Shown one piece after another: positions 1 to 6,030 of a stretch of 6,030 nucleotides of DNA. The stretch lies in IMG/VR virus record IMGVR_UViG_2681813273_000006; one strand, 5' to 3'. Both the position numbers and the translations under genes were made by a program. Each line of letters starts with the position of its first letter. Within the stretch, counting starts at the first letter, position 1. Below the pieces are notes generated by a model. It was not told the origin of the DNA. It did no database searches and was given only the letters and a program-made list of their open reading frames with translations. Origin of the DNA: a virus (Duplodnaviria > Heunggongvirae > Uroviricota > Caudoviricetes).

Positions 1-151
1 AATGGGTTAAGTGATAACAGGTGTCTGGAAATATAGGGGCAAATCCAGCGTTCATCAGCCCCCGCATTGCCGACAGGATCACAGACGGGGGGCGCAACTG
101 GTTGTCGTTCAACTGGCCCAGCTACCGTTCTTGTATCAGAGGTGTGGCTGC

Positions 152-1543
152 ATGACAACACCAGTCTGGCGTAATGATGACCTGGAAGGCGCTGTCATTG
201 GCGCATTCTTTCTGCGTGGGGCAGATCATGAAGTGATGGATATTCTGATCACACTACCGGCGGACATTTTTTCTGTACGAGCGTATCGGGATATCTACAC
301 AGGCATCTGCAGACAGGCCCGTGTTTCAGGAGTGATTGACCCCGTGCTGTTGTGTAATGAGATGCCGGAACTTGCCCCGGTGATTACTGATACCGGGCGT
401 AAAACCTGGGTGAAGTCTTCACTGGAGCACTATGTTGCAGCGTTGCGGCGCAATGCCGCACTGCGCGATGCAGAAAAAACACTGAATGAGGCGCTGCAGA
501 AATTACGTGATGCGCATACCTGTGAAGCAGCTGAAGATGCCCTGAAGGATGCGCAGAACATGATGGTCACACTGTCGACAGGAAAGGGCGTCATTCAGCC
601 GGTACATATTGATGATGTGCTTCCGGAAGTGGTTGAGCGTGTTGAATGCCGGAATCAGGGGCTGGAGAAATCCAGGACGTTGATGACCGGTATTGATGAA
701 CTGGACGCAAAAACAGGCGGTATGGAGCCCGGAGACCTGGTATTCATTGCCGCCCGTCCTTCGATGGGGAAAACCGAACTTGCGCTGGACATCATCGACA
801 AGGTGACTGAGCAGGGGCATGGTGTGCTTCTGTTCACCATGGAGATGGCGAACATCCAGATTGGTGAACGTATGGTGTCTGCGGCTGGAGGGATGCCAGT
901 ATCACGCCTGAAATCTGTGGCTCACTTTGAAGATGAAGACTGGGCGCGTTTCTCACAAGGGGTGGGGCGGATGACCGGGCGCAATATCTGGATGGTGGAC
1001 CAGGCGAACCTGACCATTGATGAGATATGCGCAACAACGAAACACCATCTGATTAAACATCCGGAAACGGCGCTGGTGGTGGTTGATTATCTCGGGCTGA
1101 TAAAAACCCGAACCACGGGGCGTCATGACCTTGCCGTGGGTGAAATCTCAAAGGGGCTTAAAGGCCTGGCAAAATCCGGTGGTTTTCCGTTGATTGCGCT
1201 GAGCCAGCTCTCCCGCGGTGTGGAGTCCAGACCCAATAAACGTCCCATGAACTCAGACCTGAAAAATTCCGGAGAAATAGAGGCGGATGCAGACATCATT
1301 CTGATGCTTTACAGGGATGAAGTGTACAACCCGGATACACAGGCTACAGGCATAGCAGAAATTAATATCACGAAACAACGTAACGGTTCTCTGGGGACGA
1401 TTTACCGGCGTTTTTATAACGGACATTTTCTGCCTGTGGACCAGGAAAGCGCACAGGTTCTTTCCACCCCAATGCGGCAGCCCCAGCCGCGCAGATACAG
1501 CAATACACGTACCGACAGCAGTAAGATGGAGCGTTTCTTTTGA
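152..1543 (+). CDS. Phage-encoded DnaB-family replicative DNA helicase (P22 gp12-like). Start could instead be the GTG at 11.
   Basis: Long ORF with recognisable DnaB motifs: Walker A-like IAARPSMGKTE, and [43 protein letters not shown] closely resembling the E. coli DnaB C-terminal region. ATG at 152 has a GAGG Shine-Dalgarno 9 nt upstream. The ORF stays open back to GTG at 11, just after an in-frame TAA at 8-10. Confidence 0.85.
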   Translation: MTTPVWRNDDLEGAVIGAFFLRGADHEVMDILITLPADIFSVRAYRDIYTGICRQARVSGVIDPVLLCNEMPELAPVITDTGRKTWVKSSLEHYVAALRRNAALRDAEKTLNEALQKLRDAHTCEAAEDALKDAQNMMVTLSTGKGVIQPVHIDDVLPEVVERVECRNQGLEKSRTLMTGIDELDAKTGGMEPGDLVFIAARPSMGKTELALDIIDKVTEQGHGVLLFTMEMANIQIGERMVSAAGGMPVSRLKSVAHFEDEDWARFSQGVGRMTGRNIWMVDQANLTIDEICATTKHHLIKHPETALVVVDYLGLIKTRTTGRHDLAVGEISKGLKGLAKSGGFPLIALSQLSRGVESRPNKRPMNSDLKNSGEIEADADIILMLYRDEVYNPDTQATGIAEINITKQRNGSLGTIYRRFYNGHFLPVDQESAQVLSTPMRQPQPRRYSNTRTDSSKMERFF

Positions 1544-1554
1544 ACAACCAGACA

Positions 1555-1647
1555 ATGACTTTTACCTCTGAACAATTGCGTAAACACGCGCAGGAAATGT
1601 TGCGACAGGCGGAACAACTGGAAAAAACAGGTGTAACAAAAGATGCC
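1555..1647 (+). CDS. 5' fragment of the small helical protein gene, cut off by the N-run; identical to 2780-2872
   Basis: ATG at 1555, 12 nt after the helicase stop. Sequence is identical to the start of the complete copy at 2780-3022 and runs into the gap at 1648. Confidence 0.5.
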
Positions 1648-1658
1648 NNNNNNNNNNN
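1648..1658. other. Assembly gap (11 N)
   Basis: Run of n characters in the sequence; sequence on either side is not collinear. Confidence 0.95.
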
Positions 1659-1682
1659 GTATTAAGACTATCACTTATTTAA

Positions 1683-1844
1683 GTGATACTGGTTGTCTGG
1701 AGATTCAGGGGGCCAGTCTACGGACATTTTCTGCCTGTGGACCAGGAAAGTGCACGGGTGCTTTCCACTCCCATGAAGCCCGGCAATCCGCGCAGATACA
1801 GTAATAAACGAACTGACAGCAGTAAGATGGAGCGTTTCTTTTGA
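1683..1844 (+). pseudogene. Helicase remnant in paralogous copy B: 53-codon in-frame ORF joining an N-terminal-proximal segment to the helicase C-terminal tail
   Basis: 1679-1720 aligns at about 70% identity to window 7-50 (TAA-GTG-ATA...). 1721-1844 aligns to the helicase 3' end 1420-1543 ([18 protein letters not shown]) in the same frame with the same stop. No internal stop codons. The roughly 1.4 kb helicase core is absent. Confidence 0.45.
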
Positions 1845-1855
1845 ACAACCAGACA

Positions 1856-2098
1856 ATGACTTTTACCCCTGAACAATTGCGTAAACACGCGCAGGAAATG
1901 CTGCGTCATGCTGAACAACTCGAAAAAACGGGCATAACAAAAGACGCTATCCGTAAAGATATGGTACCCGCGCTTCGGGAACTGATGCAGGCGAAGCATC
2001 GCGCACAGAAAGCAGTAGATGAGCTGGTGGACTGTGTGGCAGAGCTGGAAACCAGAGTCGGAAAGTTTGAAAAACTGGTGCAGGAGGTGCTGCGCTGA
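1856..2098 (+). CDS. Small alpha-helical phage protein (80 aa), copy B, function unknown
   Basis: ORF with ATG at 1856. Protein is about 92% identical to the copy at 2780-3022, with differences mostly conservative (I/V, R/K, L/M). Its stop overlaps the rusA start in a TGATG arrangement. Confidence 0.6.
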   Translation: MTFTPEQLRKHAQEMLRHAEQLEKTGITKDAIRKDMVPALRELMQAKHRAQKAVDELVDCVAELETRVGKFEKLVQEVLR

Positions 2099-2438
2099 TG
2101 CGCCATGAGTTTATTTTACCTTATCCGCCGACGGTGAATACTTACTGGCGACGTCGTGACAACACATATTTTGTATCAAAAGCCGGTGAGCGTTATCGCC
2201 GGGATGTGGCGCTTATTGTCCGTCAGCAGCGACTGAAATTAAGCCTGTCCGGAAGACTGGCGATAAAGATTATTGCAGAGCCACCGGATAAGCGCCGTCG
2301 TGACCTGGACAATATCCTGAAAGCACCACTGGATGCACTGACACATGCGGGAGTGTTAATGGACGATGAGCAGTTTGATGAAATCAATATCGTTCGTGGT
2401 CAGCCAGTATCTGGTGGACGTCTGGGGGTGAAGATTTA
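2098..2438 (+). CDS. rusA: RusA-family Holliday junction resolvase, copy B, 3' end truncated at the ambiguous base / contig join
   Basis: Translation matches RusA motifs ([41 protein letters not shown]). The ORF-track product reads through the n at 2439 into helicase-tail sequence, which is not a real protein. Confidence 0.6.
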
Positions 2439-2439
2439 N

Positions 2440-2768
2440 GCGGTGTGGAGTCCAGACCCAATAAACGTCCCATGAACTCAGACCTGAAAAATTCCGGAGA
2501 AATAGAGGCGGATGCAGACATCATTCTGATGCTTTACAGGGATGAAGTGTACAACCCGGATACACAGGCTACAGGCATAGCAGAAATTAATATCACGAAA
2601 CAACGTAACGGTTCTCTGGGGACGATTTACCGGCGTTTTTATAACGGACATTTTCTGCCTGTGGACCAGGAAAGCGCACAGGTTCTTTCCACCCCAATGC
2701 GGCAGCCCCAGCCGCGCAGATACAGCAATACACGTACCGACAGCAGTAAGATGGAGCGTTTCTTTTGA
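2440..2768 (+). pseudogene. 5'-truncated copy of the helicase C-terminal coding region; likely an assembly duplicate, not an independent gene
   Basis: Identical to helicase 1215-1543 and begins immediately after the n at 2439. The listed 2445-2768 ORF simply starts at an internal Met. Confidence 0.55.
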
Positions 2769-2872
2769 ACAACCAGACAATGACTTTTACCTCTGAACAA
2801 TTGCGTAAACACGCGCAGGAAATGTTGCGACAGGCGGAACAACTGGAAAAAACAGGTGTAACAAAAGATGCC
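2440..2872 (+). repeat. Exact 433-bp direct repeat of 1215-1647 (helicase 3' end plus start of the small ORF); probable contig overlap
   Basis: Base-by-base comparison of 1215-1647 with 2440-2872 shows identity at a constant offset of 1225. The repeat is bounded by the single n at 2439 and, in the first copy, by the N-run at 1648. Confidence 0.85.
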
Positions 2873-3022
2873 ATTCGTCGGGATATGGTGCCAGCGCTCA
2901 GGGAACTGATGCAGGCGAAACATCGCGCACAAAAAGCGGTGGATGAGCTCGTTGATTGTGTGGCAGAGCTGGAAACCAAAGTTGGAAAGTTTGAAAAAAT
3001 GGTGCAGGAGGTGCTGCGCTGA
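2780..3022 (+). CDS. Small alpha-helical phage protein (80 aa), copy A, function unknown
   Basis: ORF MTFTSEQLRKHAQEML...VQEVLR with ATG at 2780. Stop overlaps the rusA ATG (TGATG). No clear Shine-Dalgarno, so the start is uncertain (TTG at 2765 is an alternative). Confidence 0.65.
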   Translation: MTFTSEQLRKHAQEMLRQAEQLEKTGVTKDAIRRDMVPALRELMQAKHRAQKAVDELVDCVAELETKVGKFEKMVQEVLR

Positions 3023-3393
3023 TGCGCCATGAGTTTATTTTACCTTATCCGCCGACGGTGAATACTTACTGGCGACGTCGTGGCAGCACATATTTTGTAT
3101 CAAAAGTTGGTGAGCGTTATCGCCGTGATGTGACGCTAATTGTTCGCCAGCAGCGGCTGAAATTAAACCTGTCCGGAAGGCTGGCGATAAAGATTATTGC
3201 AGAGCCACCGGATAAGCGCCGTCGTGACCTGGACAATATCCTGAAAGCACCACTGGATGCGCTGACGCATGCCGGACTACTCATAGACGACGAGCAGTTT
3301 GATGAAATCAATATTGTGCGCGGTCAGCTCGTTCCTGGTGGGCGACTGGGCGTGAAGATTTATGAAATCACAGGTGATAACGATGGCGCGTGA
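3022..3393 (+). CDS. rusA: RusA-family Holliday junction resolvase (endodeoxyribonuclease RusA)
   Basis: 123-aa ORF with RusA signatures, including the acidic motif RRRDLDN and the DDEQ / GGRL region; resembles E. coli prophage RusA. AGGAGG lies 10 nt upstream of the ATG. Confidence 0.85.
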
Positions 3394-3769
3394 TATTCAG
3401 CAGGTTATGGAACGGTGGGGGGCTTGGGCTGCAAACACTCATGAAGATGTATCCTGGGCGTCGATCGCTGCTGGTTTTAAAGGGTTAATTCCGTCGAAAG
3501 TGAAATCACGCCCTCAGTGTTCTGATGATGATGCAATGATAATTTGTGGCTGTATGGCCCGGTTGAACAAGAAAAATCAGGATTTGCACGATTTGCTGGT
3601 GGATTATTACGTAGGTGGAATGACTTTTATGAGTCTGGCACGGAAACATGGGTGTTCGGATACCTGTATTGGCAAGCGCCTGCAGAAAGCGGAAGGGGTT
3701 ATTGATGGCATGTTGATGATGCTTGATATCCGGCTGGAGATGGACAGATACGTAGAACGAATTATGTAG
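3383..3769 (+). CDS. Late-gene antiterminator Q (phage 82 / DLP12 quuD-like family)
   Basis: [28 protein letters not shown]...[16 protein letters not shown]...GKRLQKAEG strongly resembles my recollection of E. coli prophage Q (QuuD-type) proteins. ATG at 3383 has an AGGTGA Shine-Dalgarno 5 nt upstream and overlaps the rusA stop. A strong promoter follows at once. Confidence 0.8.
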
Positions 3770-3773
3770 GTGC

Positions 3774-3803
3774 TTGACCAGACACATTGTCCGGGGCTAT
3801 ATT
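3774..3803 (+). promoter_or_regulatory. Sigma70 late promoter (PR'-like) immediately downstream of Q
   Basis: TTGACC (3774-3779), 18-nt spacer, TATATT (3798-3803). The position directly after the Q stop matches lambdoid late-promoter/qut architecture. A 6-bp hairpin CGCCAG/CTGGCG sits at 3811-3828 in the initial transcribed region. Confidence 0.6.
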
Positions 3804-3864
3804 CCTCACGCGCCAGCAAAATCTGGCGTCGGGATTGGAACCCCGGATAGAGACCGCGACAGAC

Positions 3865-3889
3865 ACACGCCGCGAGCGTGTTTTTTATT
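3865..3889 (+). terminator. Intrinsic terminator (tR'-like), ending a roughly 77-nt leader RNA from the late promoter
   Basis: Stem ACACGC / GCGTGT with loop CGCGA, followed by TTTTTTATT. Confidence 0.6.
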
Positions 3890-4243
3890 GTCGTATGCAC
3901 GCGCACATCTGAATTATGGTGGGGCGCATGGGGGAGCTGAAAAGCTCGCCGGTCGGTTTCCCGGTAGTTCCAACCCTGTGCGTCTCACCACCCGATGATT
4001 GGAACCTGACGGTGTTGACAGTTTCAGGTTTGCAGTTTACATTTCCCCGCGGTGCTCAAAACACCTCGAAAGCGGTATCCACACCCGATAGCCATGTGGT
4101 TTTTTTGTGTCCAGAATTCTTGGTTTATGACCGGGTGTGCGGCTAATACAATACCAGCAATGGAAATACGCCCGCCGACTTTCGACGGTTTTGAGCGCCC
4201 GGTCACCCTCTCAAAAGGGGTAAATCAAAATATTCGAAAGGAC

Positions 4244-4813
4244 ATGTCTATGAATCGCACGTCTATTGAAAAACTCCCGTCACTTACGCATAACCATCTT
4301 CCTGTCATGACAACAGAGCTGCTGGCTGATTTGTACGGAACAGAGCGCCAGCGTTTGACAAACAATTTCAATCGAAACAAAGAACGGTTTATAGAAGGTA
4401 AACATTTTTTCCTGATAGAAGGTGATGCGTTACGAGAGTTGAAGAACGAAAACTCTTTAAGAGTTTCTGTGAAAATTGCCCGTAACGTTCGCTCCCTCAT
4501 CCTCTGGACAGAACGTGGCGCAGCCCGTCACGCCAAAATGCTCGAAACCGATCAGGCGTGGGAAGTGTTCGAAAAACTGGAAGACTGTTATTTCAACCAG
4601 AAACAGCCACCAGCGGCACAAAACACATCTATCGAAAATGATGGATGCGCATTACTGAGCCACTTCGATAAACACGGTCAGGTTGAGTTCACGGAAAAGG
4701 TACCCGCCGATGCGATGGTATGTACTCTGGAACGGTTTAAATTTTATCTGGAGCAACACGGGTGGATCGTTGCCCGTAAAGAGCAACTGGTGGAGCGGTT
4801 GATGCGGTTTTAA
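4244..4813 (+). CDS. ORF6N-domain (KilA-N-related) putative DNA-binding / antirepressor-like protein; start may be ATG 4250
   Basis: N-terminal region VMTTELLADLYGTERQRLTNNFNRNKERFIEGKHFFLIEGDALRELKN ... LWTERGAARHAKML fits the ORF6N domain pattern as I recall it. AAGGA Shine-Dalgarno lies 7 nt before ATG 4250. The ORF-track extension back to 4052 has no start codon and covers leader sequence. Confidence 0.65.
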   Translation: MSMNRTSIEKLPSLTHNHLPVMTTELLADLYGTERQRLTNNFNRNKERFIEGKHFFLIEGDALRELKNENSLRVSVKIARNVRSLILWTERGAARHAKMLETDQAWEVFEKLEDCYFNQKQPPAAQNTSIENDGCALLSHFDKHGQVEFTEKVPADAMVCTLERFKFYLEQHGWIVARKEQLVERLMRF

Positions 4814-4889
4814 AAATTTTTTCCGAAAACTTTACGATCGTAAAAAGTTGAATATCCTGTTAAGAGTGGTTACTACGCCACACAGCTTA

Positions 4890-4915
4890 AACCCGCCGAT
4901 GAGCGGGTTTTTTTA
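4890..4915 (+). terminator. Intrinsic terminator downstream of the ORF6N gene
   Basis: Stem ACCCGC / GCGGGT with loop CGATGA, followed by TTTTTTTAT. Confidence 0.65.
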
Positions 4916-4964
4916 TACCTGAAAAACGGCACAGGACGTTAAACGTGCTGGTGGTCAGATGAGT

Positions 4965-4993
4965 TTGCAGATGTGATGACATATGGTTATTAT
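4965..4993 (+). promoter_or_regulatory. Sigma70-like promoter directly upstream of the tRNA cluster
   Basis: TTGCAG (4965-4970), 17-nt spacer, TATTAT (4988-4993). The first tRNA starts 10 nt downstream. Confidence 0.45.
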
Positions 4994-5002
4994 TCTGCCT
5001 CC

Positions 5003-5079
5003 GGCCCTTTAGCTCAGTTGGTCAGAGCGAGCGACTCATAATCGCCAGGTCGCTGGTTCAAGTCCAGCAAGGGCCACCA
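5003..5079 (+). tRNA. tRNA-Ile2 (anticodon CAT, lysidine type, ileX/ileZ-like); tRNA-Met not formally excluded
   Basis: Manual cloverleaf: acceptor GGCCCTT/AAGGGCC, D-arm GCTC..GAGC, anticodon loop CTCATAA, T-arm GCTGG TTCAAGT CCAGC, discriminator A plus CCA. Closely resembles E. coli ileX. Confidence 0.8.
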
Positions 5080-5080
5080 A

Positions 5081-5157
5081 CCACCACTAGCTCATCCGGA
5101 TAGAGCATCAACCTTCTAAGTTGACGGTGCGAGGTTCGAGTCCTCGGTGGTGGGCCA
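5081..5157 (+). tRNA. tRNA-Arg (anticodon TCT, reads AGA)
   Basis: Manual fold: acceptor CCACCAC/GTGGTGG, anticodon stem TCAAC/GTTGA with loop CTTCTAA, T-arm CGAGG TTCGAGT CCTCG, discriminator G plus CCA. Confidence 0.8.
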
Positions 5158-5159
5158 GC

Positions 5160-5235
<76 letters not shown>

Positions 5236-5238
5236 TAT

Positions 5239-5313
<75 letters not shown>

Positions 5314-5926
5314 GCGAGATTTGAGACGAAGGTTGTTATTTGCACTGACACAATATTGTGTGGGAATGTCTGACTCCTTACCATCTCCTGTTCTGTGATG
5401 TTGTTTTGTTGCAGTTCCAGTGCTCTTTTTTCAGCACCAGAATGGTGCATTGTCGGTCAGGTTACGTAGTGAACCTCTGGCAGGGGACTGATGATTCATC
5501 ATTCTGGTGTTGTAAATATCTCTTCGGACAACTTACAAAATATTCTAAGCAAACCCCGGGAACACACTCTTAACTGCCTTGGCTGGCGGTTTTTTGTACA
5601 GCGCTCGGTATGTGTGAGCTGGAAATCAGATTTTGCATGGACTGGAATCATGCTGTTATTTAGGGGCGAAGAACTGGCTTTTTCTTCCGCCTTCTCACCA
5701 GTAACGATTAGAAAAATAATGAAATGCCCCCCTCCGGGGAGGAGGACCGTAGAAAAAAGGACCCGCCAGCAAAAACATTGGGGATGAACAGCTTTCGCTA
5801 CTCAGATTGCTGGCGGGTAAAGTTCCTCATGAATTAAGAATGCTACGCGATCTTTTTTAATGGAAATGAAAATTATTGTCAATTAGTCGTGCGTGTTTTT
5901 TCATACAATATTGGTAAAGGTGATTC

Positions 5927-5960
5927 AGGCCATCAGAGTTTTGCTGATGGCCTTTTTTCT
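5927..5960 (+). terminator. Strong intrinsic terminator
   Basis: 10-bp perfect stem AGGCCATCAG / CTGATGGCCT with 7-nt loop AGTTTTG, followed by TTTTTT. The reverse strand lacks a T-run, so it is + strand specific. Confidence 0.75.
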
Positions 5961-6030
5961 TTCCGATAGCACAGGTCTGTCGGGGGGGTGCCCCTATTAA
6001 GTTGTCAAGCATGTTATGACCCCTGCGGGG

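Follow-up and report, generated by a model that had tools for sequence, protein, structure and literature searches.

A small phage gene that ends a helicase-containing replication block, seen as two prophage alleles on one Shigella sonnei-type scaffold

The stretch of viral DNA analyzed here (IMG/VR record IMGVR_UViG_2681813273_000006, Caudoviricetes; 6,030 nucleotides, hereafter the window) appears to hold, one behind the other, two copies of a cassette in which a short open reading frame of about 80 codons (the small ORF) runs directly into a rusA resolvase gene. We asked why the two copies lie side by side, and whether the small protein, which a preliminary description of this DNA had portrayed as always coupled to rusA, belongs with that gene at all. 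Our account, to which we give a probability of about 0.85, is that the window is scaffolded, that it holds the constrained alleles of two prophage remnants, that the small ORF ends a replication block, and that its product may have a partner-binding role.

Three contig pieces, from a genome of the Shigella sonnei type, are scaffolded together in the window and separated by N runs at 1648-1658 and 2439 (Table 1). Pieces 1 and 3 overlap: positions 1215-1647 and 2440-2872 are the same 433 nt without a mismatch, and what looks like a third small ORF, incomplete (1540-1647), is copy A DNA (2765-2872) written twice. Together, pieces 1 and 3 match a single colinear stretch of loci L017/L019 at 100% (4462-6108 and 5676-9223), and piece 2, which carries copy B, matches loci L020/L022 at 100%. 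L016 and L020 belong to the same complete chromosome, CP104423.1, at 916-929 kb and 2,527-2,539 kb; the exact copy-A protein is encoded there near 922 kb and the exact copy-B protein, also on record in Shigella sonnei, near 2,533 kb, each amid its own phage genes. The origin of the copies from two related lambdoid prophages, as originally proposed, is thereby borne out, but the side-by-side reading overlooked an artefact of scaffolding.

Table 1. Features of the window, with the evidence on which each was placed
Feature	Position	Strand	Evidence or remark
IS2 right end; piece 1 begins inside	1..47	+	46/47 identical to last 47 nt of K-12 IS2A
DnaC/IstB-like helicase-loader gene, 3' remnant, prophage A, IS2-cut	48..155	+	aligns to L003 CDS end
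DnaB-type replicative helicase gene, prophage A	152..1543	+	Pfam DnaB_C 7.8e-73; PHROG 19
Small ORF A, first 108 nt (duplicate of 2765-2872)	1540..1647	+	433-nt identity 1215-1647 / 2440-2872
11-N run, gap between pieces 1 and 2	1648..1658	.	
IS2 left end, reversed; piece 2 begins inside	1659..1720	-	60/61 identical to IS2A left-end reverse complement
Helicase gene B, last 40 codons and stop, IS2-truncated	1721..1843	+	6/40 differences from helicase A C-terminus
Small ORF copy B	1841..2098	+	85 aa from TTG, or 80 aa from ATG at 1856; PHROG 2565 8e-32
rusA copy B, first 113 codons, cut by contig end	2098..2438	+	Pfam RusA 2e-16; complete, 124 aa, in L020
Single N, join of pieces 2 and 3	2439..2439	.	
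Helicase gene A 3' end (duplicate of 1215-1543)	2440..2768	+	
Small ORF copy A	2765..3022	+	85 aa from TTG; ATG at 2780 = 80 aa; PHROG 2565 3.6e-30
rusA copy A, 123 aa	3022..3393	+	Pfam RusA 7.5e-15; ATG overlaps small-ORF stop (TGATG)
Q antiterminator gene	3383..3769	+	Pfam Phage_antitermQ 2.2e-52; 11-nt overlap with rusA

Read at face value, with its copies ~0.9 kb apart from start to start, the window would suggest a genuine tandem or segmental duplication in one prophage, the helicase 3' end, small ORF and rusA being repeated head to tail. We regard this as highly improbable, given that N runs stand at both junctions, that the insert is flanked by the perfect 433-nt repeat, that copy B starts within an IS2 end, and that the sampled complete chromosomes keep pieces 1 and 3 contiguous, with piece 2 some 1.6 Mb away, the distance between copies A and B in finished Shigella sonnei-type chromosomes. 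The tandem form of the cassette was present in none of the loci retrieved. Because the N runs separate the copies, their adjacency is without contiguous-sequence support; the runs, the 433-nt duplication and the comparison with complete genomes point instead to a layout made by the scaffolder, which probably placed piece 2 between pieces 1 and 3 because the 89%-identical alleles confuse assembly.

Both loci are IS-disrupted prophage remnants. Remnant A (pieces 1 and 3) reads IS2, loader-gene stub, DnaB-type helicase, small ORF, rusA, Q, an ORF6N gene and tRNAs; remnant B (piece 2) reads IS2, a 40-codon helicase stub, small ORF and rusA. Upstream of copy A the loader gene is cut by IS2 (IS3 family), and upstream of copy B the same element has left only 40 helicase codons. 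Its ends were verified against K-12 IS2A, and the IS2 junction in piece 2 is also found in L020. What remains of the loader gene matches the end of an 'ATP-binding protein' CDS (5230-6108 of locus L003, from 6001). The rusA gene of copy B ends against the N, that is, at a contig end, and is incomplete within the window.

The two diverged copies described at 1856-2438 and 2780-3393 are real. Over 718 nt, positions 1721-2438 and 2645-3362 share 89.3% ungapped identity, with a concordant blastn result. The small ORFs differ at 29/240 nt and 6/80 residues (7.5%), the rusA genes at 31/339 nt and 9/113 residues (8.0%), and the TGATG junction between them is kept in both copies (2096-2100 and 3020-3024). 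The 15 amino acid replacements had been called nearly all conservative, which overstates the case: by BLOSUM62, 8 score positive, 3 zero and 4 negative (P/S, D/G, P/L and S/P). Purifying selection, also part of that description, is well supported. Between copies A and B, the Nei-Gojobori omega of the small ORF is 0.058 (22.5 synonymous and 6.5 non-synonymous changes; binomial p = 1e-9) and that of rusA is 0.135 (p = 7e-7). The small ORF is likewise conserved beyond its source genome, with all 38 unique alleles intact and a median pairwise omega of 0.061. Since the alleles are intact and their divergence is mostly synonymous, the small ORF and rusA are real protein-coding genes under purifying selection in phage lineages; the low omega records the history of two such lineages, not maintenance in the present host.

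It is hardly credible, then, that the small ORF is no gene and owes its conservation to its neighbors or to a cis-acting site. The protein matches no Pfam or NCBIfam family and has no assigned function, as a non-gene would predict; against this stand an omega of about 0.06 in frame, as opposed to values above 1 in the other two frames, the intact alleles, homologs reaching down to ~30% identity and including winged-helix fusions, and a Shine-Dalgarno-like GGAG at the right spacing, 8 nt upstream of a TTG at 2765. The same frame-specific omega rules out the small ORF as a shadow of minus-strand ORFs such as 2593-3030.

That TTG (1841 in copy B) lies 15 nt upstream of the ATG first taken as the start, and it is the likely start codon, giving a protein of 85 aa. 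In copy A it overlaps the helicase stop (TTGA, 4 nt), and PGAP annotates the 85-aa form in E. coli genomes. Every one of the 38 close alleles has the ATG; in a single allele the TTG reads TTA. All the stop/start overlaps of this gene series (TTGA, 4 nt; TGATG, 1 nt; rusA/Q, 11 nt) are on one strand. Such an arrangement is consistent with a model in which helicase, small ORF, rusA and Q would be transcribed from an early-right operon and the small ORF would be translated by coupling to, or re-initiation from, the helicase gene.

The rusA products are recognizable members of their family. Pfam RusA (PF05866) scores 56.1 bits for copy A and 61.1 bits for copy B against a gathering cut-off of 22.8, the product matches PHROG 34 at 1.6e-54, and the copy A protein aligns to PDB 1Q8R at 5e-22 over residues 4-116. 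In that alignment D69, D71 and D90, residues shared by copy B, fall on positions 70, 72 and 91 of 1Q8R, which we take to be the three catalytic aspartates of E. coli RusA (D70, D72 and D91). The proposal that both prophages maintain functional resolvase cassettes may hold in part: intact frames and aspartates weakly suggest competent enzymes, but the genes sit in IS-disrupted remnants and their omega values reflect phage history.

We then turn to the company that the small ORF keeps. Its neighbors were taken from complete E. coli genomes and IMG/VR because a scan of species-representative genomes, with the most distant sequence dropped, gave only 5 loci, too few for neighbor statistics. Among 5,426 complete E. 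coli genomes, 348 carry the small ORF (385 places). In 187 genomes the order is helicase, small ORF and a DUF968 HNH-nuclease gene; rusA follows in 21, and in the remaining genomes, as sampled, Q (directly) or ninH comes next. Among the 80 closest IMG/VR loci (79 evaluable), the next gene is rusA in 28, Q in 43 (42 of the PF06530 type and 1 of the PF03589 type) and ninH in 8. Upstream, by contrast with this variety, a helicase gene precedes the small ORF at 77/77 evaluable IMG/VR loci and in 38/40 E. coli records of a spread sample. Matches that span rusA and Q without the small ORF start at query positions 580-589, the junction itself. Within this subfamily the steady companion of the small gene is the phage helicase gene and not rusA, and the small gene closes the replication block. 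Where rusA or Q comes next, its start codon is overlapped by the small-ORF stop; a ninH or DUF968 gene follows after a short gap, and the module boundary is exactly the TGATG junction. The downstream slot can be filled by different genes, rusA among them, and the claim of constant coupling to rusA is refuted. The helicase adjacency is itself limited to the short subfamily of E. coli/Shigella and, in another order, to JK004-like phage-plasmids; no DnaB gene adjoins the homolog in Hafnia, Klebsiella or P2-like-GPA contexts.

In the small protein itself AlphaFold2 places helices at 5-25 and 29-79 (mean pLDDT 86), a predicted two-helix coiled-coil hairpin with no catalytic features. Foldseek searches of the short form against PDB and BFVD gave no match below E = 1, and such non-significant matches are typical of a simple helical hairpin. 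The idea that the protein might be a known nin-region family did not hold: neither Pfam nor NCBIfam has a family at its curated cut-off, Nin/Ren included, and PHROGs show no Nin/Ren relation. Both copies instead match PHROG 2565 (8e-32 and 3.6e-30) and PHROG 2539 (2.9e-17 and 1.6e-15) over the C-terminal ~80 profile positions. Long forms match both PHROGs alike and carry the hairpin domain C-terminal to a winged-helix domain. Sub-threshold coiled-coil matches in Pfam (BLOC1_2, 20 bits against a cut-off of 33; GA_3; TMF_TATA_bd) were rejected as compositional. A first homolog search returned relatives of >90% identity only; the breadth of the family came from an exhaustive search of representatives, in which it proved narrow, with 25 clusters at 50% identity among 1.84 billion proteins. 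Two matches from that search, P0129 and P0136, were set aside as spurious (repeat-rich, low-complexity). A 151-aa Cys/His-rich protein downstream of a long form (locus L112), considered as NinG-like, had no match in Pfam. The family is common in Stx-converting phages, and a literature search on its phiP27 member, L20, found no papers.

What, then, might such a protein do? Its predicted fold and setting suggest that it acts by protein-protein contact, serving in phage DNA replication or recombination as a module that oligomerizes or binds a partner, a suggestion to which we give roughly even odds. A dedicated partner of RusA, such as a regulator or co-factor of the resolvase, is the role that the window itself brings to mind, and the TGATG overlap with rusA recurs in the 21 E. 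coli genomes and the pair in the 28 IMG/VR loci. Yet rusA-like matches number 7,422 places in 3,294 E. coli genomes, of which only 21 have the small ORF joined to rusA, 327/348 small-ORF genomes lack the pair, phiP27 and Stx phages have the small ORF without a neighboring rusA, and a TGATG-type overlap is used between the small ORF and Q too; such a dedicated role is very unlikely.

Two other partners are each possible but less likely than not. One is the DnaB-type helicase, of which the small protein could be an accessory factor coupled for stoichiometry, perhaps a modulator, an adaptor or a release factor for the DnaC-like loader. The helicase stop overlaps the small-ORF start in every evaluable close relative, and JK004-like phage-plasmids encode a long form (~32% identity, shared domain) 0.14-2.9 kb upstream of dnaB; but a helicase gene is not adjacent in Hafnia phage yong2, Klebsiella phages, P2-GPA-type elements or the 171-178-aa long forms, the helicase beside copy B of S. 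sonnei is destroyed, and a DnaC-like loader is already encoded upstream. The other candidate is the recombination-nuclease gene that comes next, typically DUF968, with RusA as a non-orthologous replacement. DUF968 proteins combine an Orf-like domain with HNH and are sometimes fused to RusA (PMC4118853). In five divergent subfamilies their genes come next downstream or within three genes, and this holds even where DUF968 identity falls to 35%; the 187 E. coli genomes with the helicase, small ORF and DUF968 order fit the same idea. Against it, the gene immediately after the small ORF is Q (or ninH) rather than a nuclease gene in about 40% of the closest relatives, DUF968 is missing from the vicinity in the phage-plasmid and 198-aa subfamilies, and nin-region gene order can persist without a functional link. 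We tentatively propose for the ~80-aa protein an accessory role in the DNA transactions of the lambdoid early operon, in which it would bind the DnaB-type helicase or the DUF968 nuclease encoded after it in most subfamilies, with RusA replacing the latter non-orthologously in the slot, and with the long forms tethering the same module to DNA through their winged helix.

Because the adjacency of the copies is a scaffolding artefact and the small gene goes with the helicase rather than with rusA, the small-gene/rusA finding is ordinary. It carries two cautions: N-separated contig pieces of a draft scaffold can mimic a tandem duplication, and low dN/dS between prophage alleles tells of phage lineages, not of current function in the host. 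It also places a narrow, strongly constrained phage family where the replication block meets a nin-type nuclease slot, with mosaic breakpoints falling exactly at the small-ORF stop codon, and Stx-converting phages, among which the family is frequent, are easy to manipulate.

Several known systems bear comparison with this locus. E. coli RusA (DLP12; PDB 1Q8R/2H8C) and phage 82 RusA have in common with the window proteins the Pfam match and the three aligned aspartates. The K-12 gene is, like those of the window, housed in a defective prophage, but the window protein is far diverged from it (NCBIfam PRK09786, 83 bits against a cut-off of 200), and its upstream neighbor is unlike the small ORF, the order in DLP12 being ybcO-rusA. 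PHROG 2565 and PHROG 2539 are phage families of unknown function, and both window copies fall within both; PHROG 2539 consists mostly of long forms (171-250 aa) whose N-terminal part is a winged-helix domain absent from the window proteins. In predicted structure these long forms resemble winged-helix regulators of the BlaI/MecI, PadR/LmrR and RosR types, which have a C-terminal helical dimerization domain; the long forms are modeled as a winged helix joined by a disordered linker to a two-helix hairpin. Foldseek placed their N-terminal domain among ArsR/MarR/BlaI-like winged helices, weakly (best E = 7.5e-3); these matches concern only the domain missing from the window proteins and do not speak for homology of the hairpin to those dimerization domains. 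The first genes of lambda ninR (ren, ninA, ninB/orf; gene order as in PMC4118853) occupy the same place as the small ORF, between the replication genes and Q and upstream of a rap/rusA-type nuclease slot, a likeness that is positional only. Homologs in Stx2 phages are 64-67% identical, with DUF968/ydfU as the next gene; they, those of Stx1a phages and phiP27 L20 are annotated as hypothetical proteins. L20 (NP_543072.1) is 95% identical to copy A over 80 aa and, like it, directly follows a DnaB-type helicase gene and shares a 1-nt stop/start overlap with the next gene; that gene is Q in phiP27, where the order is helicase-L20-Q with no rusA, whereas in the window it is rusA.

Annotation of the window with Pfam, PHROG and ARAGORN, together with features of related loci, is collected in the table. 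The 6,030 bases are not continuous DNA: a stretch of 11 N (1648-1658) and one further N (2439) separate three pieces, numbered 1 (1-1647), 2 (1659-2438) and 3 (2440-6030). The end of piece 1 (1215-1647) is repeated exactly, over 433 bases, at the start of piece 3 (2440-2872). Two alleles of a small-ORF/rusA pair are present, copy A in piece 3 and copy B in piece 2, and their exact 85-aa small proteins are recorded under Shigella sonnei names. By tracing where these proteins are encoded, we reached complete chromosomes. In two loci fetched from public genomes (L017 and L019), pieces 1 and 3 form one colinear stretch at 100% identity (4462-6108 and 5676-9223), in which the 433 shared bases occur once, while piece 2 matches two other loci (L020 and L022) at 100%. 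One chromosome, CP104423.1, carries both loci 1.61 Mb apart, with small ORFs near 922 kb (L016) and near 2,533 kb (L020), and the preliminary description was therefore right to name two related lambdoid prophages as the source. The copies stand in tandem here only through an artefact of assembly; most probably a scaffolder strung two near-identical alleles into one line. The pair itself consists of ordinary prophage alleles, for which public genomes already carry the annotations hypothetical protein and RusA-family resolvase.

Features of the window and of related loci (L-numbers denote loci fetched from public genomes and phages)
Feature	Coordinates	Location	Remark
IS2 end	1-47	piece 1	46/47 positions agree with annotated K-12 IS2A
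DnaC-like loader gene, final ~100 nt		piece 1	
DnaB-type helicase gene	152-1543	piece 1	
Small ORF, initial 108 nt		end of piece 1	
IS2 end, inverted	1659-1720	piece 2	60/61 positions agree with K-12 IS2A
Helicase gene, final 40 codons		piece 2	
Small ORF copy B	1841/1856-2098	piece 2	TTG/ATG starts
rusA copy B		piece 2	113 codons as far as the N
Helicase 3' end, second occurrence		start of piece 3	
Small ORF copy A	2765/2780-3022	piece 3	TTG/ATG starts
rusA copy A	3022-3393	piece 3	
Q antiterminator gene	3383-3769	piece 3	
Promoter-/terminator-like sites	3774-3803, 3865-3881, 4889-4910, 5927-5953	piece 3	consensus matches only
ORF6N anti-repressor-like gene	4250-4813	piece 3	
Four tRNA genes	5003-5313	piece 3	downstream of Q and ORF6N gene
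Nested IS, IS21-family (rve and IstB genes) within IS2	3697-5880	L020	copy B locus in CP104423.1
Long forms with predicted winged helix (171-250 aa)	3728-4243; 3626-4222; 3063-3731	L114; L142; L007	upstream: KilA-N protein
E. coli/Shigella subfamily			upstream: DnaB-type helicase
Klebsiella and Hafnia subfamilies			upstream: Phg_2220_C/DnaD-like protein
L182 subfamily			upstream: P2 GPA-like protein
DUF968 adjacency		L110-L169, L182-L186, L005, L008, L009, L006	

Both loci are prophage remnants. At locus A, which carries copy A, IS2 cuts the loader gene 104 nt ahead of the helicase start, with non-phage genes beyond it, and in some strains another IS splits the helicase gene (L018). At locus B, IS2 has reduced the helicase gene to 40 codons, and an IS21-family element is nested within that IS2. 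The antiterminators downstream also differ: copy A is followed by a 128-aa PF06530 Q and copy B by a PF03589 protein with 284 aa. The final 43 bases of the window (5988-6030) diverge from the S. sonnei reference (L017) just ahead of the holin gene and agree with the end of a transposase-bearing element (L013/L014 7349-7379); they probably belong to a further IS end, at which the contig breaks off. The transposase ORF beside that match in L013 encodes 398 aa and was judged IS110-like from its sequence.

Copies A and B share 89.3% identity over 718 ungapped aligned bases, and both have TGATG at the small ORF/rusA junction. Between them we counted 22.5 synonymous and 6.5 non-synonymous changes in the small ORF (omega 0.058, Nei-Gojobori; binomial p for the synonymous excess, 1e-9) and 21 and 10, respectively, in rusA (omega 0.135; 7e-7), while omega exceeded 1 in both alternative frames of the small ORF. 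All 38 unique small-ORF alleles from the fetched loci were intact, with a median pairwise omega of 0.061, and the reading frames and RusA catalytic aspartates are intact. The low omega and the 38 intact alleles uphold the earlier observation of two diverged copies under purifying selection and show the small ORF to be a real, constrained gene. The low omega was built up along two phage lineages, however, and says little about maintenance in the present host. The copies differ at 6 of 80 amino acids in the small protein and 9 of 113 in RusA; to call these replacements nearly all conservative was an overstatement, as BLOSUM62 scores are positive in 8 of the 15 and negative in 4.

The small ORF can be read from an ATG, as in the preliminary description (80 aa), or from an upstream TTG overlapping the stop codon of the helicase gene (TTGA), as called by the NCBI annotation pipeline (85 aa). 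A GGAG lies 8 nt upstream of the TTG, and no ribosome-binding-site-like sequence was found ahead of the ATG. The TTG is favored because Stx2-type homologues have Thr aligned with the ATG. The ATG is kept in 38/38 close alleles, while TTA replaces the TTG in one; the TTG is thus likely, but not settled, as the true start.

In Pfam and NCBIfam, the small protein matched no family at threshold; it matched PHROG 2565 and, less strongly, PHROG 2539, two families without a known function. The family is narrow, since only 25 clusters (E <= 1e-3) turned up when 1.84 billion representative proteins were searched exhaustively. AlphaFold2, run on the single sequence, predicted helices at 5-25 and 29-79 (mean pLDDT, 86), for which Foldseek found no significant match in the PDB or BFVD. 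Several family members are longer (133-249 aa) and carry the shared domain at their C-terminus. A 171-aa long form, modeled from 24 sequences, begins with a confidently predicted winged helix (pLDDT 85-94), which a disordered linker joins to the two-helix hairpin; Foldseek placed the N-terminal domain weakly among ArsR/MarR/BlaI-type winged helices. In JK004 gene_32, a Cys-rich stretch lies between the two domains; in JK004-like phage-plasmids, dnaB lies 0.14-2.9 kb downstream of a long form.

The claim that the small protein is always coupled to rusA did not hold. Of 5,426 complete E. coli genomes, 348 carry the small ORF (385 places), joined to rusA in 21 and to a DUF968 gene in 187; rusA-like DNA occurs in 3,294 (7,422 places) and is hardly ever accompanied by the small ORF. 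Of 40 E. coli records taken as a spread sample, rusA overlaps the small-ORF stop in 3 and Q does so in 16; no gene overlaps it in the other 21. Across the 80 closest IMG/VR loci, a helicase gene lies upstream in all 77 evaluable cases, and the downstream gene is a PF06530-type Q (42), rusA (28), ninH (8) or a PF03589-type antiterminator (1). Thousands of rusA+Q matches in E. coli start at query positions 580-589, exactly the TGATG junction (window 3019-3028), so the stop/start overlap is also the border of a mosaic module.

Upstream, the replication gene varies among divergent subfamilies. Downstream, directly or within three genes, a DUF968 gene (PHROG 96, HNH endonuclease) is found in five subfamilies. 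The slot 3' of the small ORF therefore usually holds a recombination nuclease, with rusA as one occupant. The cassette idea thus survives in this weaker form, without specific coupling to rusA. The adjacency to DUF968, with gaps of ~10-50 nt, spans subfamilies with unrelated replication genes and persists even at 35% DUF968 identity; the two may possibly form a functional pair, apparently unstudied. DUF968 proteins are described as combining an Orf(NinB)-like domain with an HNH nuclease motif (Curtis et al. 2014, PMC4118853).

The small ORF has overlapping stop/start codons with the upstream helicase gene and with whatever gene comes next, and mosaic breakpoints are located at its stop codon. 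It is probably expressed from the early-right operon through translational coupling, and its product is probably a coiled-coil hairpin working by protein-protein contact. We put at about 0.5 the probability that it acts through such contact in phage replication or recombination, with the helicase and the downstream nuclease about equally likely to be its partner. The remaining probability goes to something unrelated, such as a host-directed function. The function of this phage protein family, small and narrow in its distribution, is of modest interest.

A promoter-like site lies directly 3' of the Q stop codon, followed by several hairpin and T-run terminator-like sites; judged by consensus matches only, this arrangement would suit a Q-dependent late promoter with its terminators. 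The tRNA genes are tightly packed (CAT, Arg-TCT, Thr-TGT and Gly-TCC); ARAGORN assigns the CAT tRNA to Met, versus a tRNA-Ile annotation at a homologous locus. That locus (L003 7493-8418) is the second helicase/small-ORF locus of E. coli FDAARGOS_944, in a second prophage at ~901 kb; copy B is matched at 99.7% in the same genome, at 483 kb. It reads helicase, small ORF, ninH, Q and then the same four-tRNA cluster, indicating that the rusA slot reassorts independently of the tRNA/late region.

The prophage-borne tRNA cluster resembles the clusters that precede stx in Stx phages. Deposited phages give the same picture of the small ORF's neighbors as the genome and IMG/VR counts: the gene order is helicase, small ORF, DUF968, Q in Stx2 phages and PhiR49_2, and small ORF, Dam, RusA, DUF968, Q, without a helicase gene, in Hafnia phage yong2. 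In phiP27 it is helicase, L20, Q, and the small protein is 95% identical to L20.
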